Source: a phage. From it: a stretch of 64,000 nt of DNA. The DNA is taken from the sequence record PX418922.1. One strand, given 5' to 3'. Shown here one piece after another: positions 25,423 to 43,091 of the stretch (positions within the stretch are counted from its first letter, which is position 1; every line of letters begins with the position of its first letter). The notes below the pieces were generated by a model. It worked only from the letters and a program-made list of their open reading frames with translations, was not told where the DNA came from and searched no databases. A program made the translations under genes and the position numbers.

Positions 25423-26409
25423 ATGGCAGCACCAAAATCATGGGAACAATATAAAGAAGAGTGTCAACCAATAGCAGAGAGTAAGCAAATCCAAATCTTA
25501 GGATGGACGGGAGAATGGAAAGGGGTTAATACAAAACTTGATTTGTTGTGTCATTGTGGTTATAAATGGGATACTACAAGTATTAACAATTTTAAACGTG
25601 GTAGTGGTTGTCCTTTATGTGGATATGAGAATACAAGGAAGGCACAAACAATATCCGACGATCAACATATTGCAGATTTCTTTTCTACAGGGAAGTTTAA
25701 GGAAGGCACTATTTTCACCAATACGGGGGAACGTAAAGGGTGTGATCCAGTATGGATGATTCAGTGTCCTGTTTGTTCTCATGATGAATATGTTAAAGCT
25801 GGACTATGTGATGGTAAGTTTTATATGACGCGTGGCAATCTTAAATATGGATACTTACCCTGCCGTTGCTCTGCATCTTATAGGTATACAGCGGAACAGA
25901 TTACGTATAAAGTAAGAAAGAAAATAGAAAAGAAAGGGTATGTTTGGATAGGATGGATTACCAAACCATCTTCTATAGGTAAGTTTAAATATATATGTAA
26001 GAGTCATGGGGAACAAAAAGGAACTGCAAACAACCTTTTAAACATAGGACAAGGTTGTCCGCAGTGTGCTAACAAAAATCAACAACAAGCCTACATTAAT
26101 TATATTTACGATGAGCAAGATATTATCTGTGCACTGAAGTTTGGTATTGCTAATAATAGTAATCGCCGTATGAAAGAACAAAATAGTCATAATGTGTTCA
26201 CTATGAAACAACACCAAGTGTGGCACTTCCCTACTGTTAAGCAATGCCAAAACGCAGAGAAATATTGCAAGAAGGTGTTAAACACGGAAGCAGTGAGCAA
26301 ATATTCTATGCAAGATGGCTACACAGAAACAGTGGAGCTATCTTGCATGGCATCCGTACAGAATATTTATAAACTTTATGGTGGAACATTACAGGAGGAA
26401 ACATGTTAG
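25423..26409 (+). CDS. zinc-ribbon repeat protein with C-terminal GIY-YIG / T5orf172-like domain, copy 1
   Basis: Repeated CxxC pairs; C-terminal YINYIY-(10)-KFGIA...R; paralog at 42111-43091. Confidence 0.45.
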   Translation: MAAPKSWEQYKEECQPIAESKQIQILGWTGEWKGVNTKLDLLCHCGYKWDTTSINNFKRGSGCPLCGYENTRKAQTISDDQHIADFFSTGKFKEGTIFTNTGERKGCDPVWMIQCPVCSHDEYVKAGLCDGKFYMTRGNLKYGYLPCRCSASYRYTAEQITYKVRKKIEKKGYVWIGWITKPSSIGKFKYICKSHGEQKGTANNLLNIGQGCPQCANKNQQQAYINYIYDEQDIICALKFGIANNSNRRMKEQNSHNVFTMKQHQVWHFPTVKQCQNAEKYCKKVLNTEAVSKYSMQDGYTETVELSCMASVQNIYKLYGGTLQEETC

Positions 26410-26768
26410 TTGACGTTCAAATTATGCGCAACGAAAGAATGGACTTCTTTGAAGCAGTAGAGAAACATCTGATCAGATGGGACTATGAATTTGTTCCTGC
26501 TGGATGTGGACCAGTAGAGCATTTAGCGGAAGACGACGATGTATACATGATCATTCGTCAAGTGTACCAGACAGACCAGTGTGAAGAAACGCCCGAACTG
26601 ATTTTGTTTGAGTGTAAAGATCTTGCAAAATATTTTGACTATGGCGGAAAAGAGGGTCATAATCTCTCCAGATACAATAAACGTCTACTTATCTTAGACT
26701 ACATGCGGAACAACAAACACAAACTCATCGACGCAGACGCAGTTTATGGCTACTGGTGGATGGATTAA
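26403..26768 (+). CDS. hypothetical protein (121 aa)
   Basis: ORF track. Confidence 0.5.
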   Translation: MLVDVQIMRNERMDFFEAVEKHLIRWDYEFVPAGCGPVEHLAEDDDVYMIIRQVYQTDQCEETPELILFECKDLAKYFDYGGKEGHNLSRYNKRLLILDYMRNNKHKLIDADAVYGYWWMD

Positions 26769-26781
26769 CAAAGGAGAAACT

Positions 26782-26970
26782 ATGGCACGTTTAGCAGATA
26801 ACCCTGTATTCTACCCCGTTCTTGATCTTTATGATGAATTGACATATGTTGTGGAGCGGTATAATTACAATGAAGACCTCTTGGAGACAAACCTTAAAGT
26901 AGTTCTGATGAAAGCCTATCAGCAAGGGCAACGTGAAATTTTGGAGAGTATGAAAAATGCGAATAACTGA
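26782..26970 (+). CDS. small hypothetical protein
   Basis: Start moved to ATG after AAAGGAG. Confidence 0.45.
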   Translation: MARLADNPVFYPVLDLYDELTYVVERYNYNEDLLETNLKVVLMKAYQQGQREILESMKNANN

Positions 26971-27499
26971 TGATTATGTATTCTTCTTTTCACATAAAGA
27001 TGTTTTTAGTAATTGGTATATTGCACCCTTTACAGAAACCGAACCAGGTTACAATCAGACATTTAATTGTGTCGAACAATACATGATGTGGCGTAAAGCT
27101 TTGCTTTTTAATGACCACAACACTGCACAGGCTATTCTGACTCATAGTTTGATACGGAAAGATGAGAAGATCCAAGCTTATTACAAACGTATGGGTAAGG
27201 CAGTGTCGGATTTTGATAACAACGTATGGGAAGAGAACCGTGAGCGTATTGTTATGCGAGGTTTATGCTTGAAATATGTACAGAATCCAGATTTGTATGC
27301 AGACTTACACCTTTACCAATACAAAACGTTTGTTGAAGCAAGCCCCTACGATAAGGTTTACGGAATTGGAATGGGGATGTATGAACCAGGGGTGCTAAAC
27401 CCTGCCACCTGGAAAGGGCAGAATCTTTTAGGTAAATATCATAATAAACTGATCGAAATACTTTTCCCAGACAAAATACCGCAAAGACGATATTTGTGA
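26957..27499 (+). CDS. NADAR (YbiA-like) domain protein
   Basis: FFFSHKDVFSNWY near N-terminus and YGIGMGMYEPG near C-terminus resemble the NADAR/DUF1768 fold. Confidence 0.5.
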   Translation: MRITDDYVFFFSHKDVFSNWYIAPFTETEPGYNQTFNCVEQYMMWRKALLFNDHNTAQAILTHSLIRKDEKIQAYYKRMGKAVSDFDNNVWEENRERIVMRGLCLKYVQNPDLYADLHLYQYKTFVEASPYDKVYGIGMGMYEPGVLNPATWKGQNLLGKYHNKLIEILFPDKIPQRRYL

Positions 27500-27740
27500 T
27501 ATTTTAACTTTTTTCATTTTTAGAACAAAGGTGTCACTTTGTAGCACAGAAATAAGGCTCCTACAGCACCGTAGAGAGCCTGTTATTTTGTCCTATACAA
27601 ACCCTTGTCTTTTTCAGTTTGCATCACTAGGATTCGATCTAAGTAGGTTCCTGAAGGTCTACCAATAAGATTAAAGGTTATCTCAAATTACCACTACCTG
27701 TTATCTCAAAAATTCCTCAAATTATTTAAACTTTTTAAGA

Positions 27741-27920
27741 ATTTACAAAAGTGAAAGTTGAAAACCAAAATTTAAAGTTTAGGAAAATTATCTTAAAATG
27801 TCAGATACAAAACAAAACTCAAAAGTCAAGGAAAATTTTAAAAATTTTGCGCGCCCACAGTATTTAAAGTTTTTTTGCTTTTACAAAAATGAAAGTACAA
27901 AAGCAAAATTTAAAGTTTAC
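27741..27920. repeat. two ~40-bp imperfect direct repeats in an AT-rich intergenic region
   Basis: TTTACAAAAGTGAAAGTTGAAAACCAAAATTTAAAGTTTA (27741-27780) and TTTTACAAAAATGAAAGTACAAAAGCAAAATTTAAAGTTTAC (27879-27920). Confidence 0.6.
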
Positions 27921-27967
27921 AAAAATTTATGCAGATGGGAATGAGAAGAGTTCTCATGTGGAAATGC

Positions 27968-28046
27968 AAATGATAATGATTCGCATTTAGGTTTATAAAT
28001 GAGATTGATTCTTATTTAATAAAGTAAATGATAATCATTCTCATTT
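27968..28046. promoter_or_regulatory. three Fur-box-like palindromic sites
   Basis: AAATGATAATGATTCGCATTT, AAATGAGATTGATTCTTATTT, AAATGATAATCATTCTCATTT; core GATAATCATTCTC is 1 mismatch from the Fur-box 3' 13-mer. Confidence 0.4.
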
Positions 28047-28304
28047 AGAGAATGACGCGCAGGGGCGGTGTTTGTCTCGCGCTCCCGTGTCCCCTCGCCA
28101 TGTACTAAGAATAACAGATCCAGCCAGGAAAGCAAGCGATTATTTTATCTTTACATTTCTTTACAAATATATAGCGCCCAGCCTACCGGCGATCAACCTT
28201 CCAACCAGTGCCCCTGGTATGTTAGCCCCGCCTTTACGCCGTGGGGTGGCGCTTCCTCTTCTGTATGTAAAACAGTATAAGCCCTATCCCTGGGCTTGTC
28301 AAGA

Positions 28305-28571
28305 TTATTTTTTGTTTTCTTGCCAGGTCAGGACACCTAGCCAAAAATGAATATCACCTTTTCCCCAATGTGGTATATTGCTTTCTTTCCCACCTTCACG
28401 CGCCCAGGTAAAACCGCCCGTGTAACTTTGTAATTGATAACTATCCTCGACCTTATAATCTGATAGGTTGAGAACGGTTTCAACCTTTAAGCCCGTTGCG
28501 CTTGCTACCTGGTGCACCGTGCCGCCTTGCCAGCCCAATGAGTGCATAAGATGTAATGTAGTATTTGTCAT
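28305..28571 (-). CDS. hypothetical protein (88 aa), GC-rich
   Basis: ORF track; AAGGG upstream; lies in an otherwise non-coding stretch, so uncertain. Confidence 0.3.
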   Translation of the reverse strand: MTNTTLHLMHSLGWQGGTVHQVASATGLKVETVLNLSDYKVEDSYQLQSYTGGFTWAREGGKESNIPHWGKGDIHFWLGVLTWQENKK

Positions 28572-28680
28572 GGTGTCGCCCTTTCTTTGTTGTGCGCCCT
28601 GGTTGGCGCGGTAGAAAGATGATAGCCCTTTCCTTTATATATAGCAAGCAAAAAGAAAATAAAAAAGATTGAAAAAGTGG

Positions 28681-28738
28681 TTGACGTTCGCCAGGTGGCG
28701 GCATAATATTTACCACGTAGCGCGGCAATGGTGCCGCT
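28681..28738 (+). promoter_or_regulatory. island promoter + 5' leader hairpin (P1)
   Basis: TTGACG-N17-TAATAT-TTACCAC-GTAG then hairpin GCGGCA-ATGG-TGCCGC. Confidence 0.55.
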
Positions 28739-28758
28739 CACTATTTGGAGTTAAGATC

Positions 28759-28956
28759 ATGGCAACATTGCACATTGTGGCGAAAGCTGGACAAATCAAC
28801 GTAATAGTAAACGGTTTTACTGAGTTCAGTCATCCCCAGGATGATCATGAAACGGTTTTATCTTTCATTGATTCCCTGTTAGAAATGGGAGTCATTACAG
28901 AAGACCAGCACGCTACAAAATGCAAGCGCGTTAATCAAATTGCAGGGATAGAATAA
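28759..28956 (+). CDS. island small protein (65 aa)
   Basis: ATG after GGAG; ORF-track frame trimmed so the start is downstream of the leader hairpin. Confidence 0.5.
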   Translation: MATLHIVAKAGQINVIVNGFTEFSHPQDDHETVLSFIDSLLEMGVITEDQHATKCKRVNQIAGIE

Positions 28957-28962
28957 AAAGTA

Positions 28963-29017
28963 TTGACAACAAACAACAACCTGATAAGATGTATCACATA
29001 GGGGCGACAAGCGCCCC
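28963..29017 (+). promoter_or_regulatory. island promoter + 5' leader hairpin (P2)
   Basis: TTGACA-N16-TAAGAT-GTATCAC-ATAG then hairpin GGGGCG-ACAA-GCGCCCC. Confidence 0.55.
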
Positions 29018-29041
29018 GCCTAACAGAAGAGAGAAATCATC

Positions 29042-29314
29042 ATGGCATCATATAGCGCAACAATGATCGTAACTGGCACCACTGGTAAACCTATGAGCGG
29101 TGGCGGATCTTTCGCTAATATTAATATTGACGGGCGCTTATCCCTGGACGCAGCGATCACCGTGGCGCGGGAAACATTTAAGAAAGAATGTAAATTCAAT
29201 AAACAAGATTATCTCGGTTTCGCTATTGAAAAAACCGCGCGCTTTGTTGATTATAAAAGCCCGAAAATGGTTGATACTACACTGAAAGCGCAAGATGTAG
29301 CCTTTTTGCTTTAA
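29042..29314 (+). CDS. island small protein (90 aa), Gly-rich N-terminus
   Basis: ORF track; AGAGAGA RBS. Confidence 0.55.
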   Translation: MASYSATMIVTGTTGKPMSGGGSFANINIDGRLSLDAAITVARETFKKECKFNKQDYLGFAIEKTARFVDYKSPKMVDTTLKAQDVAFLL

Positions 29315-29317
29315 GGC

Positions 29318-29371
29318 TTGACATTAACGAATAATTTGTTAATATGTTACATAAAGCGGGAATAGTTCCCG
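29318..29371 (+). promoter_or_regulatory. island promoter + 5' leader hairpin (P3)
   Basis: TTGACA-N16-TAATAT-GTTACAT then hairpin GCGGGAA-TAG-TTCCCGC. Confidence 0.55.
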
Positions 29372-29390
29372 CTATTTGTAAGGTGGTAGA

Positions 29391-29648
29391 ATGTTTTACA
29401 TCAAATTAAAAGGTCACGTGATCGCGTTCAAAGATAACGCTTTTTACAGATTAGCAAAATATGCGTTAATACATCCCCACTATGTTTATATAAGGGGGCG
29501 TGATGAAATAAATATTTTTGATCAAACAACATGCGAAAACATCGAGATCCGCAAGGTTGGCGTACGTGATTATCGTACATCTTTCTACCCTTGCAAGGAT
29601 TCAGCAAGTCTTTTTAAAGTATGCCAATTGTTGAAAAAAGGTGGTTAA
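29391..29648 (+). CDS. island small protein (85 aa)
   Basis: ORF track. Confidence 0.55.
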   Translation: MFYIKLKGHVIAFKDNAFYRLAKYALIHPHYVYIRGRDEINIFDQTTCENIEIRKVGVRDYRTSFYPCKDSASLFKVCQLLKKGG

Positions 29649-29649
29649 T

Positions 29650-30207
29650 ATGGGCCGCGAATATGTGATCCAGTCTTGGGTAAAACATGAAGCAGATGAT
29701 CCGCGCATCATTCCCGATCATCTTATCGATGAATCCACGGGATATAGCGGTGAGCAAATAGGTAACAGATTAGCACGTAGTAACGGCAACGTAAAAGCGC
29801 GTTATGTGCGCCCTGGCTGGCTGGCAAATGGTAACGCTGATTTATCCAGTGCGGAAGATGCGAGCGACGGCGCGAAAGATAATCCTTTGTACAAAATTGA
29901 TCCGGCTTTTCGTGTCCTGGATGAATACCCCAGCAAGATAGCGGCGCTCGATCAGGCCCTGGAAAGTAAGCGCATCACCTGGACCGCTTACAACATGGCA
30001 AAAAACGTACTTGATGGTAAATTGATTCAAGCTGAAAGAAAATTAGCCAAAATTGCAGCCATAACCCAGGAGGAAGACGAGGAGACAACGGAAGAGGAAG
30101 AGTACGAAGAGATCCCGCCGTTGTTGTGTGTTGATGCTTTCCCTGATTATCAGCCGACAGAGGAAGAAAAAAGGATCGCACTAGAAAACTTTGAAAATAG
30201 TCTTTGA
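29650..30207 (+). CDS. island protein with acidic C-terminal tail (185 aa)
   Basis: ATG after AAAGGTGG; C-terminus EEDEETTEEEEYEE; no own promoter. Confidence 0.5.
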   Translation: MGREYVIQSWVKHEADDPRIIPDHLIDESTGYSGEQIGNRLARSNGNVKARYVRPGWLANGNADLSSAEDASDGAKDNPLYKIDPAFRVLDEYPSKIAALDQALESKRITWTAYNMAKNVLDGKLIQAERKLAKIAAITQEEDEETTEEEEYEEIPPLLCVDAFPDYQPTEEEKRIALENFENSL

Positions 30208-30260
30208 CATATCGCCGCCACTGGCATAATATTTACCACGTAGGGCGGCAATGGTGCCGC
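30204..30260 (+). promoter_or_regulatory. island promoter + 5' leader hairpin (P4)
   Basis: TTGACA-N17-ATAATA-TTTACCAC-GTAG then GCGGCA-ATGG-TGCCGC. Confidence 0.55.
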
Positions 30261-30289
30261 TCATAGTGAAATTATGCAAGAGGTTTGCA

Positions 30290-30385
30290 ATGATTAATAA
30301 AGAAAATAGCTTGACGGTTGGAACGATTAACGCTATCATTCTTGCCGTTCCATTTTGGATTGTATTAGCGGCTATTATTTTCTAA
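30290..30385 (+). CDS. hydrophobic micro-protein (31 aa)
   Basis: MINKENSLTVGTINAIILAVPFWIVLAAIIF; only coding capacity downstream of P4. Confidence 0.35.
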   Translation: MINKENSLTVGTINAIILAVPFWIVLAAIIF

Positions 30386-30394
30386 AAAATATTC

Positions 30395-30455
30395 TTGACA
30401 ACGTTTTTTAATCTGATAAGATGTATCACATAGGGCGGCGGAATACTTCCCCGCC
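30395..30455 (+). promoter_or_regulatory. island promoter + 5' leader hairpin (P5)
   Basis: TTGACA-N16-TAAGAT-GTATCAC-ATAG then GGCGG..GGAA-TAC-TTCC.CCGCC. Confidence 0.55.
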
Positions 30456-30476
30456 AAAACAAAAAAGGGTAACACA

Positions 30477-30839
30477 ATGAGCAAGCAAATCAATACTATC
30501 ATGTTTAATCTGGTATCTTTCCGCGATGATATGAAAAATTTACCACGTGAAACGGTTGATATTCATGTTTCAGCTTATCGCGCCCTTATTGATATGTTAC
30601 CGCTAAAACGTGATCAACATGCCGCTAATATGATGCTTAATGCTATGCTTAAAAAGATGATTCAAACGGATCTCACCCTGGCGTATGAGTATCAAGGGCG
30701 CTTATATGCAACTTACAACAAGGCGGTACCTGGTCTGGGAAGTACCGAAGAGTTGCACGGCTTAAACCTGGATCAAAACACTTGGGATAGTATGCGCCGC
30801 GTTATGGTATGGGCCGAAAGCGGTAAAATTTACGAATAA
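30477..30839 (+). CDS. island small protein (120 aa)
   Basis: ORF track. Confidence 0.55.
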   Translation: MSKQINTIMFNLVSFRDDMKNLPRETVDIHVSAYRALIDMLPLKRDQHAANMMLNAMLKKMIQTDLTLAYEYQGRLYATYNKAVPGLGSTEELHGLNLDQNTWDSMRRVMVWAESGKIYE

Positions 30840-30844
30840 AAACG

Positions 30845-30902
30845 GTTGACATTGTTTAAAATTCTAGTATAGTTTACCACATAGGGCGGGAAGTGGTTTC
30901 CC
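30845..30902 (+). promoter_or_regulatory. island promoter + 5' leader hairpin (P6)
   Basis: TTGACA-N16-TATAGT-TTACCAC-ATAG then GCGGGAA-GTGG-TTTCCCGC. Confidence 0.55.
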
Positions 30903-30927
30903 GCCAACAATGAAAAAGGTTATCATC

Positions 30928-31293
30928 ATGGCTATTAATATTAATGTTTCCGCTTATGCTACCCTGGCTAACACGGCTAAAATTGAATTATCCAGCATTG
31001 AGGCGGTGCATATTAGCGCCCGTCGCTGGTTTCAACGGTCCTACGGTAACACATATTTTTCTTTAATGGTTGACGTTGAGATCGGCGGTAAACTGATCGA
31101 GGTGGTTAACGTTCCGTTTCAATATGGCTATGGTGATCATTTTGATACCGTCGCCCTAGAAGAGTTTAGCAAGGTTATCAACCTGGAAGGTAAAGAGTTT
31201 TCAAATTATGCCTACCTTTCCCGTTTTTGCCGTGACAATGGGATCACTGTATACAGTCATGCGAGCGATGTAAAACGTAAAAAAGATTTATAA
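30928..31293 (+). CDS. island small protein (121 aa)
   Basis: Second in-frame ATG chosen (AAAAAGG upstream); the first ATG abuts the hairpin. Confidence 0.5.
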   Translation: MAININVSAYATLANTAKIELSSIEAVHISARRWFQRSYGNTYFSLMVDVEIGGKLIEVVNVPFQYGYGDHFDTVALEEFSKVINLEGKEFSNYAYLSRFCRDNGITVYSHASDVKRKKDL

Positions 31294-31299
31294 AAAGCA

Positions 31300-31360
31300 T
31301 TGACAGCACGAATAAAAAGAGTAAACTGTATTACATAGAGAGCGGGAACACTTCCCGCCT
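31300..31360 (+). promoter_or_regulatory. island promoter + 5' leader hairpin (P7)
   Basis: TTGACA-N17-TAAACT-GTATTAC-ATAG then GCGGGAA-CAC-TTCCCGC. Confidence 0.55.
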
Positions 31361-31382
31361 CACTGAAAAAGAGAGAAAAATC

Positions 31383-31622
31383 ATGGCTAAATCTAAAATG
31401 TACAACGGTCACAAAAACAAAACTCATTGGAATGTAAGCCTTTGGATTAATAACGATGAATCGTTATACCGGTTGGCCCAAGATTTTATTAACGCTAATG
31501 CTAATCGTAATGATGCGGCGCGGGATATGATGCTTTTTCTGGAACAAACTGGACAAGATAAAACGCCAGACGGTTTCAAATATAGCACTACTGCGATCCG
31601 TGCCGCGATGGTTGGAATGTAA
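31383..31622 (+). CDS. island small protein (79 aa)
   Basis: ORF track. Confidence 0.55.
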   Translation: MAKSKMYNGHKNKTHWNVSLWINNDESLYRLAQDFINANANRNDAARDMMLFLEQTGQDKTPDGFKYSTTAIRAAMVGM

Positions 31623-31631
31623 TAAAAACAG

Positions 31632-31689
31632 TTGACAACGTTTAAAATTAGTGTAAGATGTATCACATAGGGCGGGAAGTGGTTTCCCG
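31632..31689 (+). promoter_or_regulatory. island promoter + 5' leader hairpin (P8)
   Basis: TTGACA-N16-TAAGAT-GTATCAC-ATAG then GCGGGAA-GTGG-TTTCCCGC. Confidence 0.55.
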
Positions 31690-31712
31690 CCAAAACAAAG
31701 AGATTAAAGATT

Positions 31713-31940
31713 ATGGCTATCAATATTGTTCGCGTATCCGGCACCGTTGGCACTTCCCAGGTTATTGCAGTTGTAACAAACAAAAAGATTAATGATGTAT
31801 GTGAGATCTTGAATAAGTGGGCTATTGCTAATTTTGGGGAATATGCAAGCGTCGAGTACATCGAATCCTACCAGGTGCCAACCATCAGCCTAACCGATCT
31901 CAACGTTGATCGCCTGTTATGCCTGGATGAATTGATCTGA
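31713..31940 (+). CDS. island small protein (75 aa)
   Basis: ORF track. Confidence 0.55.
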   Translation: MAINIVRVSGTVGTSQVIAVVTNKKINDVCEILNKWAIANFGEYASVEYIESYQVPTISLTDLNVDRLLCLDELI

Positions 31941-31949
31941 AAAAGATTG

Positions 31950-32006
31950 TTGACACCGGAAAGAAAAAGAGTAAACTGTATTACGTAGGGCGGCAATGGT
32001 GCCGCT
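31950..32006 (+). promoter_or_regulatory. island promoter + 5' leader hairpin (P9)
   Basis: TTGACA-N17-TAAACT-GTATTAC-GTAG then GCGGCA-ATGG-TGCCGC. Confidence 0.55.
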
Positions 32007-32030
32007 CACAACAAAAGAGAGATTATTACG

Positions 32031-32243
32031 ATGGCTAATATCCGCACACTGTTAAAAAATGCAAGTCAAGTTTTATTTTCAGATGACGAGTATTTCAATA
32101 AAGACATTACAGGCGTGAAGAATATCAAAGATGTAAAAAGTGTTATGGGTATATATTGCAATGTTAAACGTGTTGGAACGTTCGGTGATAAAGTATTGTA
32201 CCAATCAGGTGATTACAATTTTACTTTGACGATTATTTCATAA
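32031..32243 (+). CDS. island small protein (70 aa)
   Basis: ORF track. Confidence 0.55.
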   Translation: MANIRTLLKNASQVLFSDDEYFNKDITGVKNIKDVKSVMGIYCNVKRVGTFGDKVLYQSGDYNFTLTIIS

Positions 32244-32248
32244 AACGC

Positions 32249-32310
32249 TTGCAATACTGCAAAAATAAAGTAAACTGTATTACATCAAGGCGGCGGAATG
32301 GTCCACCGCC
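32249..32310 (+). promoter_or_regulatory. island promoter + 5' leader hairpin (P10)
   Basis: TTGCAA-N16-TAAACT-GTATTAC-ATCAA then GGCGGCGGA-ATGG-TCCACCGCC. Confidence 0.5.
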
Positions 32311-32334
32311 TAACAAAGAGAAGAGGAAAATATC

Positions 32335-32502
32335 ATGATCACTTTCGCTACCCGTGAAGCCGCTCGCAACGTTGCACGTAAAGTTAACGCCGCCAACCTG
32401 GGCGCTACTTTTAAAGCGCCTGTAAAAGATGAATCAGGAAAATGGATCTTCCCTGGTCTGCGTCACGCTGATAAGCTAGGCACTTTAAGCCTTAAAAAAT
32501 AA
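32335..32502 (+). CDS. island small protein (55 aa)
   Basis: Read manually (MITFATREAARNVARK...); AGAGAAGAGG upstream; shares MITFA N-terminus with the next gene. Confidence 0.4.
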   Translation: MITFATREAARNVARKVNAANLGATFKAPVKDESGKWIFPGLRHADKLGTLSLKK

Positions 32503-32505
32503 TCG

Positions 32506-32540
32506 TTGACTTTTCGTTATAGCGCCCATTATAAGGCGCT
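32506..32540 (+). promoter_or_regulatory. island promoter with variant hairpin (P11)
   Basis: TTGACT then hairpin AGCGCC-CATTATAA-GGCGCT; -10 element unclear. Confidence 0.35.
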
Positions 32541-32576
32541 ATAGAGAAGAGAAACCACTACTAACAAGGAAACATC

Positions 32577-32798
32577 ATGATCACTTTCGCTATTGTCGCC
32601 GTTGTCGCTGGTCAGGTTTACGTAAACGATACATTCACCACAGAAGACAAGGCCGCAGGAGACATAACCGCCGTTTACAATGAGTGCAAGGCAGTAGAAA
32701 GGATGTTAGCGCCTTGTATGTTAATGAGTGAACGCCAGGACGGGATAACAGTGTTTACTAACATTGAAACAGGGTACCAAATGGTAGTAACAAAATAA
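32577..32798 (+). CDS. island small protein (73 aa), hydrophobic N-terminus
   Basis: ORF track. Confidence 0.5.
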   Translation: MITFAIVAVVAGQVYVNDTFTTEDKAAGDITAVYNECKAVERMLAPCMLMSERQDGITVFTNIETGYQMVVTK

Positions 32799-32801
32799 AG
32801 C

Positions 32802-35521: not shown

Positions 35522-35791
35522 ATGAAAATATCATTAGACGTTGCAATCAAGGCCATCGAATCCGGTTACACCCTGGTAAAAGATGATAAGGCTAAAACCG
35601 TGCACCACGTTAACAAAGAAACAGGCGAAAGCATGATCACATATAAAGCCGCCTACTTTCTCCAATCAGTAGCAGATCCGCGCGTACAACGCCAGGTTAC
35701 AGCGGCTATTGCTAAAAAATTATGTGCTTTACAGGGCACAAGTTTTAACGAGATCGCCCCGTGTTTTGACTGGTCGAGCTTGAAAAAATAG
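35522..35791 (+). CDS. island small protein (89 aa)
   Basis: ORF track. Confidence 0.5.
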   Translation: MKISLDVAIKAIESGYTLVKDDKAKTVHHVNKETGESMITYKAAYFLQSVADPRVQRQVTAAIAKKLCALQGTSFNEIAPCFDWSSLKK

Positions 35792-35792
35792 T

Positions 35793-35845
35793 TTGACAAC
35801 AATTATAAATCGGGTAGAATGTATTTCGTAGGGCGGGGCAATGGT
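35793..35845 (+). promoter_or_regulatory. island promoter with degenerate hairpin (P19)
   Basis: TTGACA-N16-TAGAAT-GTATTTC-GTAG then GGGCGGGGCAATGGTGCAACGCC. Confidence 0.45.
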
Positions 35846-35872
35846 GCAACGCCTACTAATGAGGGTAAAATC

Positions 35873-35977
35873 ATGTTAGAGAAAATTTTCACGGTTGTAG
35901 TAGTGGGCCTGGTGTTATCGGTTGGAGTGGTTGCAACTATGGCTAACATGATCCTATCTTCCCACGGTATTGGATAA
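35873..35977 (+). CDS. hydrophobic micro-protein (34 aa)
   Basis: Read manually (MLEKIFTVVVVGLVLSVGVVATMANMILSSHGIG). Confidence 0.35.
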   Translation: MLEKIFTVVVVGLVLSVGVVATMANMILSSHGIG

Positions 35978-35987
35978 GGTGAATCAA

Positions 35988-36203
35988 ATGATCACGAATA
36001 AGACAGGTAAAACAGAATTTTTACGCGCCTTGCAGATCGGCAAGCCTGAGATCTGGCATTGCACTAAATCCGCGCATAATGAAATGAAAGATTTTACCGC
36101 TACTTTACAACGTGTTAAAATATCTATCACACAGAAAAAAGCCTTGTTAGTAGTAGAAAACGAGATCCCGCAAACTATTATTATTGTCGAGCGTACAGCA
36201 TGA
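35988..36203 (+). CDS. island small protein (71 aa)
   Basis: Start moved from TTG to the in-frame ATG. Confidence 0.45.
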   Translation: MITNKTGKTEFLRALQIGKPEIWHCTKSAHNEMKDFTATLQRVKISITQKKALLVVENEIPQTIIIVERTA

Positions 36204-36586
36204 AAACAGAAATCATTATTGAAATCATCAACGGTTATAAAGAAGCCTTTATTTTTGCTGAATCAGCAAGGGATCATGAAGGTAATTTTATTGATAACTT
36301 AGACGATTATGATTTTTCTCCTAGCGTGGATCAACGGATCGCCCAGGATGTAACAGCCTTTATTAATGCTAATCTTGCCGCTATCTCTGAGGCAATGAGC
36401 GACGGCGCAACAGCCAACCAGATCGGGAATGATTTACATTTTACCCGTAACGGTCACGGCGTAGGCTTTTGGGATCGCCCTGAAATATACACCACTAACA
36501 CGGCGAACCGCCTAACCAATGCAGCTAAGTTTATGCCGAACGTGTCGGCTTACATTGGTGAAGATAATTTGATTTATATTGAATAA
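36200..36586 (+). CDS. island small protein (128 aa)
   Basis: ORF track; ATGA coupling. Confidence 0.5.
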   Translation: MKTEIIIEIINGYKEAFIFAESARDHEGNFIDNLDDYDFSPSVDQRIAQDVTAFINANLAAISEAMSDGATANQIGNDLHFTRNGHGVGFWDRPEIYTTNTANRLTNAAKFMPNVSAYIGEDNLIYIE

Positions 36587-36592
36587 AAAGTA

Positions 36593-36650
36593 TTGACACC
36601 GATCCCCAATATGGTACTATTTACCACGTAGGCGGGAAATGGTTTCCCGC
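36593..36650 (+). promoter_or_regulatory. island promoter + 5' leader hairpin (P20)
   Basis: TTGACA-N16-TACTAT-TTACCAC-GTAG then GCGGGAA-ATGG-TTTCCCGC. Confidence 0.55.
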
Positions 36651-36674
36651 CAGGTAATCAAAAAGGTAAATACT

Positions 36675-37064
36675 ATGCGCAACCTGGTTTCTGTTTCTAA
36701 CGTTGAAAAATTTCAATCTTTACAGGGTATCGTTAACAACGTAGCGCCTTTTTTAGTCAACGGCTTGATTGCAAAGATGAAAAATAAACATCATGCGGCA
36801 TGGTCTGCTTACTGCTTTGATAATGATGAAAAAGCGGCTGAAATGATGTTAAATATGCTGTTAGACAGTGTAGAATCATCTTTACCGGAAAACATCGCAG
36901 AAGAGATCACCTATCGTTATAATATGGCGATCACTTACCAGGAGGTTGCGCAATTTAATATGATGGACGATGACGAACAACAGGATCAGGAAATGTTTTG
37001 GGAGTATGCTGATCGTCAATCGGCTTTTGATGAAAAATTAGCGATGTATTATAACGAATATTAA
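36675..37064 (+). CDS. island small protein (129 aa)
   Basis: Start moved downstream of hairpin. Confidence 0.5.
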   Translation: MRNLVSVSNVEKFQSLQGIVNNVAPFLVNGLIAKMKNKHHAAWSAYCFDNDEKAAEMMLNMLLDSVESSLPENIAEEITYRYNMAITYQEVAQFNMMDDDEQQDQEMFWEYADRQSAFDEKLAMYYNEY

Positions 37065-37080
37065 TACACGGTAAAAGAAA

Positions 37081-37105
37081 GGGGCGCACTAAGCGCCCTT
37101 TTTTG
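37081..37105 (+). terminator. intrinsic terminator
   Basis: GGGCGC-ACTAA-GCGCCC then TTTTTTG. Confidence 0.65.
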
Positions 37106-37448
37106 TATTCTTTTTTCACGATGGAAACAACACGTAAAGAATAGGCGTAAAGGTGGCGTAAAACCATCTAAAACCGACTGTAACCGCTTAAACAAGGTAG
37201 GAATGATTAATCACCTTGCCAGGATGAAAAAGCCGTTATAAAGCTATCTAGAGCGTTTAAAGCACATAGGAAATAATTTGCTTTTTATCTTGCCTTTTAC
37301 CCTGCTTTTGATTATTATTATGGAACGGGCGGCACCTGGAGACAGGGGAAGATAATCACCGGAAGATCCCGCTATATATTGATAGCTAATACCTATTAAA
37401 CAACAAAACATCAAAGGAATAAACTATCAAATCTTTACAATTCTACCT

Positions 37449-37495
37449 ATTGACACCGGATCGCCCTTATACTAAGATGTATCACGTAGGGCAAA
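37449..37495 (+). promoter_or_regulatory. island promoter without clear hairpin (P21)
   Basis: TTGACA-N17-TAAGAT-GTATCAC-GTAGGGC; hairpin degenerate. Confidence 0.45.
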
Positions 37496-37524
37496 TGATT
37501 TTAAACGGTAAACGAGGAATCACC

Positions 37525-37908
37525 ATGAGCAATATCATCAACCTGGCAGCGACTGTAAACGGTAAAGACTTTAACGGCGCTGTAGACCGTGATCCTATGT
37601 GGTACTTGTCAGTGTTTAAAGGCGATCTGGTTGAAGTTAGAACAACCGAAGGGTATAGCGATGATTATAAATGCGAGATTCATTTACATAATTGGTACAC
37701 GGGTAAAACTTATGCGCTGAATCACGCGTTTATCGGAAAAATCGAATATCGTGAGATGATCGACGAAGAAACGGGGCAAGATTTTAGCGAAAACGTTTAT
37801 ATTCGTTCCGAGACATTAGCCGAACGTTTGATCGAGAAAATGAAAGCAAAAAATAAAATTAATTTATCTCATTGGATTGATATAACAAACGATCCAGCTT
37901 ATCAGTAA
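37525..37908 (+). CDS. island small protein (127 aa)
   Basis: Start moved to MSNIINLAAT... Confidence 0.5.
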   Translation: MSNIINLAATVNGKDFNGAVDRDPMWYLSVFKGDLVEVRTTEGYSDDYKCEIHLHNWYTGKTYALNHAFIGKIEYREMIDEETGQDFSENVYIRSETLAERLIEKMKAKNKINLSHWIDITNDPAYQ

Positions 37909-37924
37909 ATAACATTTCATACCA

Positions 37925-37950
37925 GGGCGCACAAAGCGCCCTTTCTTTTT
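37925..37950 (+). terminator. intrinsic terminator closing the island
   Basis: GGGCGC-ACAAA-GCGCCC then TTTCTTTTT. Confidence 0.65.
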
Positions 37951-39529
37951 GCCCGAACAATGTTGATAGATTCCGCCTATGGAAAACCGACACAGAACAA
38001 AACTGAATAAATAGCGGTATCAAGCTAATCAACCATTAAATGAATAACCATACCTCCCAGGGTAACAGGCTGTTAGAGAGCCATTTAAAGCGGTTAAAAT
38101 CGATCAACAACCAACAACAAACCATCAAAAACACCCTTTTACCTCCTTTCTAGTGCAATGATAACCATTATCATCTATCCATGTTTATCTATACAATATA
38201 AGTGCATAATTATAATGTTGATAATAGTTCGCAACAACTAACCAACAAACAACATAAAACAATAAGCAAACTAATCATAATCAAAGGAATAATAGCAAGA
38301 TGATTGATAACAACAAACAATCAAACCATGATGAATACTAAGCAAGATAACGATAACACGACAAAACAACCAACTAACGAACAATAACAAACGAAACCAT
38401 TAAAATAATAACTATTGCCATAATAGTGACTAAATGAAATCATTACAAAACGAATCATTCACAGAGTCATCATTAGCACGCTATGCCGGACACATAGCGA
38501 GCTAATAATAAGCCAACTACACCCCAACAATCATAACCATCGGTGATGGTTATTTCTTGTTACTGCGTAGCTTGCAATAATTGCAAGCGTAATGACGCTT
38601 ACACTTATTGCGCTGGCTTATTATTAGCATTATATGTAATTACCAAGATCATAACATTAGCGCAATAACAATAATCATTGTGGTAATTACGTAAGGAAAC
38701 AATTAGCATGGCAATAATTATGGGGCAATGGGAGGATGATTATCATCATTCCGATACATTGCACACTATGCACATAATAGAATAAAAAGCAATAATTTTG
38801 GGGGCGAAATGTTACCGCCACAGGCGGGAATGTTGAGCACTAAGAAAAGAGATAAACCTTAATCATGGGGGCGTAAATATCCGCAGGATTGCCAACGGCG
38901 ATCCGGTAGGATGTTGAGCATCTTCTCTTAAACGTAAATAAAATCAGAAAATTCTTGATTTATTTTAGTTTTTATGTTAATAAACGTTTAAATAATAATC
39001 ATTCTCATATAAATAATAGTCTGCTTGTCATGAGCGGGATTAGTTGACAATGTTCCGTCATATGATGAAGTTGCCAACCTATTGATAAATAAGTGTTTGT
39101 GTGATTTATAATCAAGTGGCCCACCTTGTCGCTACGTTGGCATAAGCCTTGCATAAGTCATTGAATACGAATGATAATTATTCTCATTCGCATGATATTT
39201 GGGAATTGTCGCTGCGTGGACCTGACGGCCCGAAAATTCGCGTTAAGCACTTCTTACGTATGCGCCATGATTTTTGCCATATGATATTGATTCTATTAGA
39301 TATTCTTGCCATGATTGCCATGAAACAGGGTGTCCCGAAATAATCTTTCCCCGTAGATATTTTGGGTTACTTTTTATACAAGAGTGGGGTGTCAAAAATA
39401 ATCGGTATATATGGGATAATTGATAGGAATCCCCTATGATAATTCGATTGTAATTCCCTGAGATTGATCGTATGATGTTGGTGATTGATGATTGCCATGA
39501 AAGATGGCTAACGATGAGAGGAGATTATC
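37951..39529. other. 1.6-kb non-coding, repeat-rich region with strand-skewed A+C content
   Basis: No ORF of 60 aa or more; CAACAA/ACAAAC low-complexity runs; palindromes; Fur-box-like sites at 38991-39010 and 39169-39189. Confidence 0.5.
38570..38588. repeat. 19-bp palindrome
   Basis: GCTTGCAAT-A-ATTGCAAGC, 9-bp arms. Confidence 0.6.
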
Positions 39530-39904
39530 ATGCAAGAGAGTAAAAATATTCCGTTGAGCAGTGCAGCATTGCTTCGCTTCTATAAAGCATGGATTGCCAA
39601 CTATCCTGCAATGAATCGCACAACGAGTGGCTTATGTGGTTGTCTGGTGGATTATGTAGATGATTTTGTTGGTGAGACAACTAGAGAAGAAGATAGAAGA
39701 TGGCGGGATAGTTTGTTGGACCGTTTGAAATATGAAATGAGGAGACAATTTACATGTGCAGGGCTGGACTATAATCTTCCGTTCAATGCAGATTGCATGG
39801 ATTACCTTTCAGAGTGTATAAACTTGGCGTGTCATACCAACACGTTACGTCTTCAGTGGGTGAAAGACAGAATTGAAGATGCAAATAATGTTTGCATTGA
39901 ATAA
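39530..39904 (+). CDS. hypothetical protein, paralog family A copy 1
   Basis: Shares Y..W......GLC.CL....PF.....WVKD pattern with 44137, 49930, 51236. Confidence 0.5.
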   Translation: MQESKNIPLSSAALLRFYKAWIANYPAMNRTTSGLCGCLVDYVDDFVGETTREEDRRWRDSLLDRLKYEMRRQFTCAGLDYNLPFNADCMDYLSECINLACHTNTLRLQWVKDRIEDANNVCIE

Positions 39905-39963
39905 AAATGTCTGTATAGTGGTTTGCATACCGCGCATAACAGATAGCCAATGAGGAGATTGAA

Positions 39964-40173
39964 ATGTCAAATATGAAAACTGTATCCTTGTATTTAGCTA
40001 ACACTGATCGTGTGCACACCCTTGCTAACGCAAGTCGTGTACTCGTGCAGTTCCGAAACTTTAAGCCGTCCGTTGTGACAGGCAGTGAAACGTGTGTTAT
40101 CGATTTCATTAACGAATACTTCCGAGGGAATCCGGTTGGTCGTTACTTTATTAAGGGTTTGAAGGATGCATAG
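39964..40173 (+). CDS. hypothetical protein (69 aa)
   Basis: ORF track. Confidence 0.45.
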   Translation: MSNMKTVSLYLANTDRVHTLANASRVLVQFRNFKPSVVTGSETCVIDFINEYFRGNPVGRYFIKGLKDA

Positions 40174-40396
40174 TATGAAACGCATGAAAATTCGTATTGA
40201 GAATGATGGTGGTTATAAAGGATTGGCACATGCAAAATTTCCACTTGTGTTGGAAGCTACGGTGGAATACAGTGGGCTTGCTCATGTGCGATTCTCGAAG
40301 ATGATGGAAGTGCAGGAATGGTTTTGGGACGAGATAGATGCACGAGAAGGAGAAGATTATGTTTTCTTTCCTCACGAATATAACATTGTTTATTAA
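40166..40396 (+). CDS. hypothetical protein, paralog family B copy 1
   Basis: Shares W.WF..D.....DYVFF..E.N with 44847. Confidence 0.45.
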   Translation: MHSMKRMKIRIENDGGYKGLAHAKFPLVLEATVEYSGLAHVRFSKMMEVQEWFWDEIDAREGEDYVFFPHEYNIVY

Positions 40397-40399
40397 AGG

Positions 40400-40648
40400 T
40401 TGTGTGCAATGATCACACCACAACAGAATGAAGCAGCAATGGATCTTCTTGATAGTTTGTATTTCGATAATTGGTACTCTGAATGTGAATGGATGAATAT
40501 GCAAACTCTGAAAGAGAAGACAAAAGCGTTGATTACAGTAGATCAATTTCTTGCAGAGACGGAAAGAATGAATTATGATATGGCATCTCGCGCACGACGC
40601 GTTTCCATTTTCAATAAAATGTTAGCATTATGGGGAGGTAGAAAATGA
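40400..40648 (+). CDS. hypothetical protein (82 aa)
   Basis: ORF track. Confidence 0.45.
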   Translation: MCAMITPQQNEAAMDLLDSLYFDNWYSECEWMNMQTLKEKTKALITVDQFLAETERMNYDMASRARRVSIFNKMLALWGGRK

Positions 40649-41106
40649 GACAACCATCTATACTGGAAGCGCATGTGCAATGTGTTGTAGATTATGTCAA
40701 AGAACACTCAAGTTTGTTGAATGTAACCTGTGCAGTGCAAAATGATGTAGGTATTGTCTGTGTGCAACATATCTTATCTGAAACTCGTTATGAAGTATTT
40801 CGTGCCACGTTGTTTGGATGTGATCGAGTGCATGTAAACTTCCTGGACTCCAATTATCGTTATGCTTTAGAAAATATTGATGATTATCTTCCTTGCTCTC
40901 CGACAGGATATGTAATGGTAACAGCAAACGAAGTAACACCGAGCAACAGTGAACAGGAAGCTTTGTTACGGAAGAAAATACGCCAACTGCAAGTGTTGAA
41001 TGAACTGAAAGAAGAGATTGAAAAAGAACTGAAAGAAGATTTTGGTATGCTTCCAAAAGACGCTTTGAAATGGTATGATGAGTTAGGAGGAGAGAACAAT
41101 GTTTAA
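40645..41106 (+). CDS. hypothetical protein (153 aa)
   Basis: ORF track. Confidence 0.5.
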   Translation: MRQPSILEAHVQCVVDYVKEHSSLLNVTCAVQNDVGIVCVQHILSETRYEVFRATLFGCDRVHVNFLDSNYRYALENIDDYLPCSPTGYVMVTANEVTPSNSEQEALLRKKIRQLQVLNELKEEIEKELKEDFGMLPKDALKWYDELGGENNV

Positions 41107-41557
41107 AGAAGGTCATGTCTACCGTTTCCAGGATGAGGATTATATGCGATTATATTCTACCTTTGATAACAGTATTGCTGCTATCATTGGAGAGAATTTT
41201 TTCGAGGTGTTGAGCACTGATGCAAATGGTAATATCTTGTCAATGGTTGTAATAGGTATGAGAGACGGTATTATCACTGCTGGTGATGGGGATCGTTACA
41301 TAATCAATTCTGCTCATATAGATTATTTTGTTGACGGTGGTGTTCGTGGTGGTCGTGGAAAACCCCAAGAAGAACCTGTTGATACAACAAAAGAAGAGTG
41401 GTATGTTGTAATGACTGATGACACCTGTATTTCTGGATTTGAAAGTTATGAAGAAGCTTTGAAAGAAGCAGCAGAGCATAAAATGGCTAATCCTACAGAA
41501 GAGGTTGAAGTTTATAAACGTTTGGTTGTTGCTACCATCGGCGTATCTTTTGTTTAA
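41099..41557 (+). CDS. hypothetical protein (152 aa)
   Basis: ORF track. Confidence 0.5.
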   Translation: MFKEGHVYRFQDEDYMRLYSTFDNSIAAIIGENFFEVLSTDANGNILSMVVIGMRDGIITAGDGDRYIINSAHIDYFVDGGVRGGRGKPQEEPVDTTKEEWYVVMTDDTCISGFESYEEALKEAAEHKMANPTEEVEVYKRLVVATIGVSFV

Positions 41558-41569
41558 AAGGGGAATGTT

Positions 41570-42007
41570 ATGTTTAAAGTTAATGCTGTTTACTGTTTCA
41601 AAAGTAAAGCTGCCTGTGAAGCTTTCTCTATGATCTCTGATGAAAATTTCAAAATGGCAGCTTTGATTGAAGGGTCTTGTTTCCGCGTCGAGGATGTTAG
41701 TGAATCAGGGTCTGTTTGCTCATTGACTTTATTGGACAGCGGGGATATTATTGAAGCTGGACAGTATCCGTTCAGGAGTTGGGAGATATTGTTAGCTCGC
41801 GGAGAGCGTAACTTTTTTATGTGCGTGTCTGCGGGGGAAGTTGTGAAAGAAACTAAGGATGTTTCTGTTTACAATTCTGAATTTATAAGTTATAGTGAGT
41901 ATCAACATCTGGAAGGCATTGTTGGTCACTTGTTATCTCTGATTGACATTGAATGTGACCTGCCTGAATCATTGAAAGAAGAGTTGAAAGCATTAGATCT
42001 GCTGTAA
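41570..42007 (+). CDS. hypothetical protein (145 aa)
   Basis: ORF track. Confidence 0.5.
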   Translation: MFKVNAVYCFKSKAACEAFSMISDENFKMAALIEGSCFRVEDVSESGSVCSLTLLDSGDIIEAGQYPFRSWEILLARGERNFFMCVSAGEVVKETKDVSVYNSEFISYSEYQHLEGIVGHLLSLIDIECDLPESLKEELKALDLL

Positions 42008-42110
42008 TGTTTCGCACAACGGAGACTAAGCATGTCGATTGTTTACCTGGCTGTTTGGTTCCGCTGTGATTTGTTTGTCCTGTCGGGGCATTTTTAGGAG
42101 TCTGGAAGTA

Positions 42111-43091
42111 ATGGCTAAAACTAAAAGTTGGGAAGAACATTTAAAAGATTGTTTAGAGGTTGTAAAACCAGGTGTTAAGATACTAGGATGGTCAGGAGAA
42201 TGGAAAGGAGCACATACCCGTTTGCGGTGCGTGTGTTCTGTTCACGGGGAATGGACTTCCACCACAATACATAAGTTTAAAATGGGGAGAAGTTGTCCAG
42301 GTTGTAGGACAGATGCTTCAGCCCATGCTAGACACAACGGAGATAAGTTTTGGTTGGATTTGTTGTATAATTTTTGTCAAGAACGAGATTTCTTTTTTGA
42401 AGTGCCTCAACCTCCTATCTACGGTAGGTCTGAAATCAAGATCTGCTGCCCGAAACACGGTACATTTAGAAGTACACTAAGTAATATACAAAAACAAAGA
42501 TCATGTCCCATGTGTAAAGTAGATGCAGCCAGAGAGAATAATCTTTTACCTGACCAATATCACGTGGAGAAGTACATGGCGACAGGTTCTTTTCCACAGG
42601 GCAGTTTATTTCGTAGAATAGGTAAAACAAGAAGTTCGAAAGGTTCAGCACAAACATGGGAGTGCTACTGTCCCACATGCAATGAAACACATCTTGCACG
42701 TGATAGCAATCTGGCTCAAGGTAAGCGACCATGTTCTTGTTCAGGGAATAATCAGAAGCAAGCGTACATTAATGTGGTATTTGACAACAACACTCCTATA
42801 GCTTTAAAGTTTGGAATAGCAAGAAACAGTGCACAAAGATTAGCCGCACAAAATAAAAAGAATTTTTTGAAGATGGATTGCTTGGCGGTATATTCTTTCA
42901 GAACAGTCAGAGAATGTAAAGCTGCGGAACGCGCTTGTAAGAGGATGCTGGTCTGTAGTACAGTAGGTAAGAAAGAAATGGTTGACGGGTATACTGAAAC
43001 AACATATATTTCTAATTACGATACAATTGTGGATATCTATAAGAAGTTTGGAGGTGTGAAGTTGCAAATGATAAAGAAGAGTACCGAGTGA
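42111..43091 (+). CDS. zinc-ribbon repeat protein with C-terminal GIY-YIG / T5orf172-like domain, copy 2
   Basis: Start moved to MAKTKSWEEH after GGAG; paralog of 25423; C-terminal YINVVF...KFGIA...R. Confidence 0.45.
   Translation: MAKTKSWEEHLKDCLEVVKPGVKILGWSGEWKGAHTRLRCVCSVHGEWTSTTIHKFKMGRSCPGCRTDASAHARHNGDKFWLDLLYNFCQERDFFFEVPQPPIYGRSEIKICCPKHGTFRSTLSNIQKQRSCPMCKVDAARENNLLPDQYHVEKYMATGSFPQGSLFRRIGKTRSSKGSAQTWECYCPTCNETHLARDSNLAQGKRPCSCSGNNQKQAYINVVFDNNTPIALKFGIARNSAQRLAAQNKKNFLKMDCLAVYSFRTVRECKAAERACKRMLVCSTVGKKEMVDGYTETTYISNYDTIVDIYKKFGGVKLQMIKKSTE

Follow-up and report, generated by a model that had tools for sequence, protein, structure and literature searches.

Two paralogous CapR-zinc-finger/T5orf172-type genes of an Escherichia coli myophage-like DNA are probable free-standing homing endonuclease genes

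Analysis of a 64,000-nucleotide (nt) stretch of phage DNA (sequence record PX418922.1; hereafter the window) identified two paralogous open reading frames (ORFs), ORF-A and ORF-B, both very probably free-standing genes for homing endonucleases of the CapR-zinc-finger/T5orf172 type. The assignment fits the architecture of the two proteins, the conservation of their catalytic and zinc-ligand residues, and the polymorphism of the sites that the genes occupy. From these we infer nuclease activity, target sites and mobility by homing for both genes, which would be selfish and probably mobile elements. Their positions and products, with lengths in amino acids (aa), are:

25423-26409, + strand: ORF-A, 328 aa, predicted endonuclease that joins an array of CapR-type zinc fingers to a T5orf172-like GIY-YIG domain
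42111-43091, + strand: ORF-B, 326 aa, paralogous predicted endonuclease with another module order

The DNA around both genes matched phAPEC8-like E. coli myophages (Phapecoctavirus, Stephanstirmvirinae), with ECML-183-2 and nepoznato as the nearest relatives at the ORF-A locus (~97%). Both ORFs were intact at these coordinates. ORF-B starts with an ATG at 42111, preceded by AGGAG 8 nt 5′ of the ATG, and an independent gene call on Logan contigs returned the identical 326 aa; a 99%-identical 328-aa protein of the ORF-A type was present in other assemblies. The two proteins share 31% identity over ~320 aa (BLASTP, E 3e-43) and, by sequence comparison, are true paralogs, in agreement with an earlier sequence-only reading of the window. 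The features on which that reading had relied were recovered in both proteins: a common N-terminal segment (given there as SWE...GW.GEWKG and found as KSWE...ILGW(T/S)GEWKG), several Cys pairs, and a C-terminal block of the form AYIN-(11-12 aa)-ALKFGIA-x-NS-xx-R. Both proteins matched PHROG 681 'endonuclease' (ORF-A, 3.6e-70; ORF-B, 1.4e-44), and public records mostly label the genes 'hypothetical protein' or 'endonuclease'. Within the window, ORF-A and ORF-B were the only members of the family. A weak tblastn hit of ORF-A at 10712-10867, a possible third member, was rejected as the C-terminal zinc ribbon of the anaerobic ribonucleotide reductase NrdD.

The predicted catalytic domain lies at the C-terminus of each protein:

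26077-26406, + strand: ORF-A nuclease domain, residues 219-328, with Y224, K239, G241, R249, E279 and E302
42747-43088, + strand: ORF-B nuclease domain, residues 213-326, with Y219, K233, G235, R243, E273 and E296

The C-terminal domain was modelled with a predicted local distance difference test (pLDDT) score of 94.2 and a beta-beta-alpha-beta-alpha topology, and the model contains the three-stranded sheet, flanking helices and beta-beta-alpha-beta-alpha core of the GIY-YIG fold. The elements of the GIY-YIG motif were also present, namely the Tyr, the YIG motif, the Arg ~8 residues past the Gly and the metal-binding Glu. In a nuclease alignment of 28 diverse members, the invariant columns included a Tyr in strand 1, Lys-x-Gly in strand 2, an Arg 8 residues past the Gly, a Glu in helix 2 and a Glu-Thr ahead of the last helix; Y219/Y224, K-F-G 233-235/239-241, R243/R249 and E296/E302 (ORF-B/ORF-A) were likewise invariant in 38 homologs. 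Residue equivalences with I-TevI rest on motif spacing, the Arg 8 residues past the Gly being the spacing of I-TevI as well. The nearest predicted viral structures were named CapR-homology, 'Homing endonuclease', GIY-YIG and T5 Orf172. An exhaustive hidden Markov model (HMM) search with a nuclease-domain profile retrieved 1164 representatives at 50% clustering, which indicates a large family; a word-indexed protein search with the same profile yielded just one additional protein, and comparison of the profile with PDB sequences gave nothing meaningful (top match TUP1, E 0.26). Among 28 diverse homologous domains, 17 were matched by T5orf172 (best 3.5e-5) and 14 by MUG113 (best 3e-5); on ORF-B itself, MUG113 (PF13455) scored 16-16.9 bits, below its cut-off of 22.3. 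The profile search suggested in the sequence-only reading came out positive for CapR, which exceeded its threshold in both proteins; T5orf172 and MUG113 matched within the family and remained sub-threshold for the two window proteins. The proposal of a GIY-YIG/T5orf172-like C-terminal domain is supported by the modelled GIY-YIG fold and the PHROG 681 match.

The N-terminal regions matched the CapR homology domain PF21817 well above the Pfam gathering cut-off of 24.2 bits, with 100.1 bits over three stretches in ORF-A (the best being residues 90-150) and 48.2 bits over two stretches in ORF-B. The Cys motifs are CHC43, CPLC63, CPVC115, CRC147, CKSH192 and CPQC212 in ORF-A, and CVC40, CPGC62, CPKH113, CPMC132, CYCPTC185 and CSC208 in ORF-B. 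When sub-segments were aligned locally and scored against shuffles to place the module borders, three zinc modules were resolved in each protein:

25423-25629, + strand: ORF-A module a, residues 1-69; helix and zinc knuckle, CxC...CxxC, predicted ligands C43, C45, C63 and C66
25630-25878, + strand: ORF-A module b, residues 70-152; CapR core CPxC...CxC, predicted ligands C115, C118, C147 and C149
25879-26076, + strand: ORF-A module c, residues 153-218; a-like, CxxH...CxxC, predicted ligands C192, H195, C212 and C215
42111-42314, + strand: ORF-B module a, residues 1-68; z 27 against ORF-A module a
42315-42521, + strand: ORF-B middle module, residues 69-137; a/c-like, CxxH...CxxC; z 7.2 against ORF-A module c
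42522-42746, + strand: ORF-B module b, residues 138-212; CapR core beside the nuclease; z 17.9 against ORF-A module b

Both proteins contain the two Cys pairs typical of CapR (CxxC...CxC, ~24-28 residues apart), at C115/C118...C147/C149 in ORF-A and C187/C190...C208/C210 in ORF-B; all four Cys are invariant in the 38 homologs and form a predicted zinc site. Of the 12 zinc ligands proposed for ORF-A, 11 are invariant in the same homologs (C43, C63 and C66; C115, C118, C147 and C149; C192, H195, C212 and C215), the exception being C45, the second ligand of module a. The order is a-b-c-nuclease in ORF-A and a-c-b-nuclease in ORF-B. Since the b modules align with each other (z 17.9) at different positions, module order has been permuted between the paralogs, and the ORF-B arrangement is not unique, as ~17 other proteins are collinear with it. 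The full-length AlphaFold model of ORF-A had a pLDDT of 92.1 and a predicted template modelling (pTM) score of 0.53, with confidence dipping at the linkers (residues 70-80 and 210-220); high local and low global confidence fits a model of independently folded beads joined by linkers. No significant PDB match emerged when this model was searched with Foldseek, an outcome to be expected of small modules in a chain, so the zinc modules have no solved homolog identified here. Mean pairwise identity was 0.51 for the nuclease domain and 0.43-0.48 for the finger modules; compared by module, selection gave no clear signal, the nuclease domain being just slightly more conserved than the fingers.

The sequence-only reading had also suggested a check for insertion-site polymorphism, which was found at both loci. 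At the first, an AAA-ATPase gene and a 121-aa gene border the intergenic slot that ORF-A occupies; both genes are left intact, and the 3′ end of ORF-A provides the ribosome-binding site of the next gene. The variable DNA and a joint within it are:

25351-26392, + strand: ORF-A cassette, variable DNA between conserved flanks, with its own hairpin, a ribosome-binding site and the endonuclease gene
25557-25621, + strand: recombination joint of a 198-base-pair (bp) deletion, 65 nt, encoding FK(R/H)GSGC(P/L)xC

In phiWec188 (LC739537) the slot is empty and consists of the ATPase stop, a hairpin, a ribosome-binding site and the next gene, and in EP57 the DNA from ~25338 to 26390 is deleted, joining the two flanking genes. 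In WPEC2, flank identity to the window is 97.8% as far as 25350 and 98.2% from 26393 onward; the DNA enclosed is unrelated and contains a 486-aa allele that is only 37% identical to ORF-A and has the order a-a-a-b-c-nuclease, as counted from Cys motifs. Across databases, slot alleles measured ~326, 394-408, 416-432 and 465-486 aa, with two to four a-type and one or two b-type modules. The window allele corresponds to the nepoznato-type 394-aa allele minus 198 bp, in frame, and the 65-nt joint aligns to two nepoznato sites 198 bp apart (L002 2058-2122 and 2256-2320). This double alignment marks a crossover between two otherwise diverged finger units, and the alignments indicate that the window allele lost one finger unit through 198-bp in-frame recombination. 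In the EP57 record (Escherichia phage vB_EcoM_EP57, OR544956; 309-1814), the ATPase is fused in frame to the 121-aa gene and the endonuclease cassette is gone; this record, of 130 kilobases (kb), has many very short annotated coding sequences, and the deletion may be genuine or may reflect a fault of assembly or annotation.

At the second locus, ORF-B occupies a cassette with sharp borders next to a gene remnant:

42022-43117, + strand: ORF-B cassette, 1096 bp inserted in place of 241 bp found in relatives
43118-43189, + strand: phrog_15686 remnant, last 23 codons (43118-43186) and stop

The flanks are 99.1% and 98.4% identical to those of vB_Ec-G1, with breakpoints at 42021/42022 and 43117/43118, and the cassette contains an 89-nt leader with the ribosome-binding site, the gene and a 26-nt trailer. 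In vB_Ec-G1 the empty site lies within 135299-136516 of PQ433349, in the EcG1_227-229 region. ORF-B was absent from all 62 phage records matching the region, which have the flanks only (96-99%). The same insertion at the same site was present in two independent Logan assemblies, which are 97.3% identical to the window across 41085-45772 and ~91% identical outside that block. The 241 bp lost belong to phrog_15686, a conserved 100-aa gene, and comprise its ribosome-binding site and initial 76 codons. The remnant matches residues 77-99 of EcG1_228 at 100% identity and has an in-frame stop shortly before it, at 43109-43111, and tblastn found no second copy in the window. ORF-B is probably a recent, rare acquisition. 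Just upstream of its site, vB_Ec-G1 has an extra 262-aa gene that is not in the window (L001 476-1268; window 41568-41602), annotated as 'goF mRNA metabolism modulator' and paralogous to the neighbouring 145- and 152-aa genes (phrog_3710/22975). This indel is bounded by ~35 nt common to the 5′ ends of the paralogs, and this small gene family varies in copy number as well, through recombination between paralogs.

Hairpins had been described as following both genes, a description that was not borne out: the 80 nt past each stop fold like shuffled sequence (z +0.35 and +0.70), and a terminator scan downstream of ORF-A and of ORF-B returned nothing. At ORF-A, the stop codon and the start codon of the following gene overlap (ATGTTAG), leaving no room for a terminator. 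The hairpins found near the genes lie upstream of them:

25364-25383, + strand: terminator-like hairpin upstream of ORF-A, inside the cassette; AAACCCGC-TTCG-GCGGGTTT followed by a T-rich tail
42076-42090, + strand: weak hairpin and T-run from the terminator scan, just 5′ of the ORF-B ribosome-binding site

The former, also reported by the terminator scan, is the sole strong hairpin near the genes (z -2.9 against shuffles), and phages with an empty ORF-A site or a different allele have another hairpin there, GCCCCGCAAGGGGC. The latter, folded in context, was no better than shuffled sequence. Inside the ORF-A coding sequence, an imperfect inverted repeat at 26303-26353 (22-nt arms, 82% complementary, 7-nt loop) covers the codons of the catalytic DGYTET region and may be what had been taken for a hairpin. 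No counterpart was reported at the 3′ end of ORF-B in a scan of 43000-43300, which covered the DGYTET codons (~42990-43010) only partly.

For both genes we propose a mechanism in which the N-terminal array, where flexible linkers connect three Zn(Cys/His)4 modules that fold independently, would bind a long asymmetric DNA site, and the tethered C-terminal GIY-YIG-superfamily domain would cut nearby using its Tyr, Arg and metal-binding Glu. In a mixed infection, the enzyme would cut the gene-less allele of a related phage, and repair by recombination from the gene-carrying genome would copy the gene into the break, together with part of its flanking DNA. ORF-A would represent an old intergenic slot that is nearly always filled and in which very different alleles replace each other, its finger number shifting by recombination between repeat units. 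On arrival, ORF-B would have stripped its neighbour of the ribosome-binding site and 76 initial codons, and probably the target site of ORF-B was lost with them. The suggestion that the genes are homing-endonuclease-like, made earlier as a possibility, gains support from the CapR match, the GIY-YIG-fold model and the polymorphism at both loci.

Several observations weigh against homing. Both proteins have a Lys in place of the second Tyr of the classical YIG motif, which is the usual T5orf172 form; the invariant and near-invariant columns of the 28-member alignment include neither a first-helix His or Tyr nor a conserved Asn; and T5orf172 (PF10544) scored 18.7 bits on ORF-A and 14.7-16.7 bits on ORF-B, below its gathering score of 20. 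ORF-A or an allele at the same locus is present in most of ~135 related genomes, a near-ubiquity that would equally fit a gene retained for phage benefit. ORF-B did not leave host genes intact, and its truncation of the phrog_15686 gene is unusual, being atypical of clean homing. Because its junctions show no informative homology, a single illegitimate recombination could also explain the insertion. Nor was a donor of ORF-B found: apart from its own near-identical copies, the nearest proteins are at most 40% identical, and no close DNA or protein relative was present in the phage collection. A search of 5.8 billion protein clusters for a donor returned its own copies alone, and a search of IMG/VR by junction k-mers and protein patterns returned nothing.

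The occupancy of the ORF-A locus and the intact catalytic residues would suit domesticated nucleases that benefit the phage, cutting co-infecting competitors (marker exclusion) or satellites in the manner of ICP1 Odn, with no self-propagation. Odn-like RepA_N-T5orf172 nucleases, for which satellites are the proposed targets, occur in the relatives Inny, Muut and Mt1B1_P17 (PMC10448857). We nonetheless consider this explanation unlikely, as Pfam revealed no RepA_N or other satellite-mimicking domain in either protein, neither protein had a PADLOC match, alleles at the ORF-A site replace one another between near-identical flanks and one relative has the site empty, as selfish turnover predicts, and ORF-B is rare and ruined a conserved gene. 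A phage-beneficial role, such as excluding competitors, is compatible with homing, and the two roles are not mutually exclusive.

It is improbable that ORF-B arrived by chance, as a passive passenger in a single illegitimate recombination or a transposon-like insertion, and not through endonuclease-driven homing. The replacement of 241 bp, the truncated gene and the lack of a known donor context would agree with such an event. The flanks also show no clearly divergent co-conversion tract against vB_Ec-G1; mismatches to this phage are not clustered at the junctions, which makes co-conversion tracts uninformative here. However, other members of the family show site polymorphism, including the paralog in the same genome, and the identical insertion occurs in phages that are just 91% identical outside the surrounding block. 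A transposon is itself unlikely, as reading of the junctions, with no repeat search of the cassette ends, showed no transposase, target-site duplication or terminal inverted repeats.

It is very improbable that the proteins are sequence-specific DNA-binding regulators with an inactive or vestigial nuclease domain, comparable to CapR, the capsid operon repressor of the Vibrio cholerae phage satellite PLE. CapR is a repressor built from the same zinc-finger domain (PF21817), and its four Cys are needed for DNA binding, which Cys-to-Ser mutants lose (PMC8096241). The T5orf172 domain, for its part, was originally annotated as DNA-binding. However, CapR, a transcriptional repressor, matches the N-terminal domains only (PMC8096241), whereas ORF-A and ORF-B keep a complete nuclease domain that is confidently folded in the models. 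The Tyr, Arg and Glu are invariant in both the 28 and the 38 homologs of a family with 1164 representatives, and a core regulator would not be expected to show presence/absence polymorphism or allele swapping. The intact nuclease core makes a purely regulatory role unlikely, and nothing here favours the 'regulatory nucleases' that had been offered as an alternative. An anti-phage defence system was rejected, since PADLOC families gave no match at E<=0.01 for either protein.

Read as homing endonucleases, ORF-A and ORF-B most resemble the CapR/T5orf172 class defined by the Seed laboratory in Vibrio phage ICP1 and other phages (PMC8096241, PMC8263062, PMC10448857). T5orf172 endonucleases often carry repeated CapR/DUF723/DUF4397 fingers, shuffle domains, undergo in-frame repeat deletions (gp174*) and are located at boundaries of genetic exchange (PMC10448857). 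The ICP1 homing endonucleases gp174, gp165 and gp121 likewise combine N-terminal CapR/DUF723-like repeated zinc fingers with a C-terminal T5orf172-like domain (PMC8096241, PMC10448857), and in tblastn ORF-A was 33% identical to ICP1 over 73% of the protein (E 1e-31). Several paralogs per genome, module shuffling and allele exchange between conserved flanks are further shared traits, and the change in repeat number between gp174 and gp174* is paralleled by the 198-bp deletion in ORF-A. In contrast to the ICP1 type, the present genes occur in a Stephanstirmvirinae coliphage, the ORF-B insertion removed part of a neighbouring gene, ORF-B shares no more than 40% identity with proteins beyond its own near-identical copies, and neither gene adjoins a recognised essential module, the neighbours being the AAA ATPase, a NADAR protein and small unknowns.

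The T5orf172 protein Odn (ICP1 gp88) cuts DNA in vitro, and the E180A mutant of its conserved Glu is inactive (PMC8263062). ORF-A and ORF-B have the same kind of catalytic domain, in which, as in Odn, the first helix has no invariant His or Tyr and the Arg and Glu are kept; cleavage is known for Odn and, by analogy only, may extend to the window proteins. Odn uses a RepA_N DNA-binding domain copied from its satellite target, whereas ORF-A and ORF-B use CapR-type fingers. The T4 enzymes I-TevI and SegA-G are also modular: their GIY-YIG catalytic domain is linked to a distinct DNA-binding part, which has a zinc finger in the case of I-TevI, and the free-standing Seg genes are located between phage genes. 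T4 GIY-YIG homing endonucleases spread in mixed infections, and their flanks are co-converted. However, the nuclease is N-terminal in I-TevI and the Seg proteins and C-terminal in ORF-A and ORF-B, the T4 enzymes have the YIG Tyr where ORF-A and ORF-B have Lys, and no sequence similarity is detectable; I-TevI combines its zinc finger with a minor-groove helix and a helix-turn-helix, in contrast to the array of three zinc modules here. Structure-specific GIY-YIG (URI) nucleases of the SLX1/HIGLE type, at 12-14% identity, are alike in fold only and differ in biological role and partners (Slx4, RING domain).

The surrounding sequence has some further features. A NADAR-domain protein (PF08719, E 2e-35) is encoded at 26957-27499, two genes downstream of ORF-A. 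Two long stretches, 27500-28300 (~0.8 kb), where + strand and - strand gene blocks converge, and 37910-39150 (~1.2 kb), have no ORF of at least 50 aa, no tRNA and no Rfam match. In the former, positions 27718-27789 and 27856-27927 form a 72-nt direct repeat whose copies are 82% identical, with TTTACA-18-CAAAAT elements that resemble promoters. Palindromic 19-mers like AATGATAATCATTCTCATT occur in two long non-coding stretches, at 27940-28048, 38157-38175, 38991-39009 and 39170-39188; allowing at most 3 mismatches, 9 strand-matches were found against 0.06 expected, and three copies are spaced 29 nt. The copy at 28024-28042 agrees with the E. coli Fur box GATAATGATAATCATTATC at 16 of 19 positions, and 5 of the 7 window matches to TGATAATNATTATCA fall in the two non-coding 19-mer regions. 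The 19-mers could form an operator array bound by host Fur or by a regulator of the phage, or they could be iterons of an origin.

ORF-A and ORF-B are, in our assessment, new members of the known CapR/T5orf172 homing endonuclease family, ORF-B being divergent and rare. As the family and its behaviour (repeated fingers, nuclease, allele exchange, repeat deletions) have been published, the result is chiefly the correct annotation of two genes. A more speculative idea, to which we give a low probability, is that the zinc modules act as separable reading heads, one short DNA sub-site each, and that the nucleases are re-targeted by permuting, adding or deleting modules; if true, this would make them a natural reprogrammable compact nuclease scaffold, and the ORF-A slot alleles a ready series for decoding the recognition rules. 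The window offers one phage with two paralogs of permuted finger order, one of them with a dated-looking one-finger deletion whose crossover is mapped. The ORF-A slot is found empty, deleted or filled with very different alleles between near-identical flanks, and ORF-B is a rare insertion whose empty site is present in dozens of cultured E. coli phages. Taken together, the two loci offer a practical coliphage model in which to test homing, target recognition and collateral gene loss for a class known so far mostly from work on Vibrio phage ICP1.

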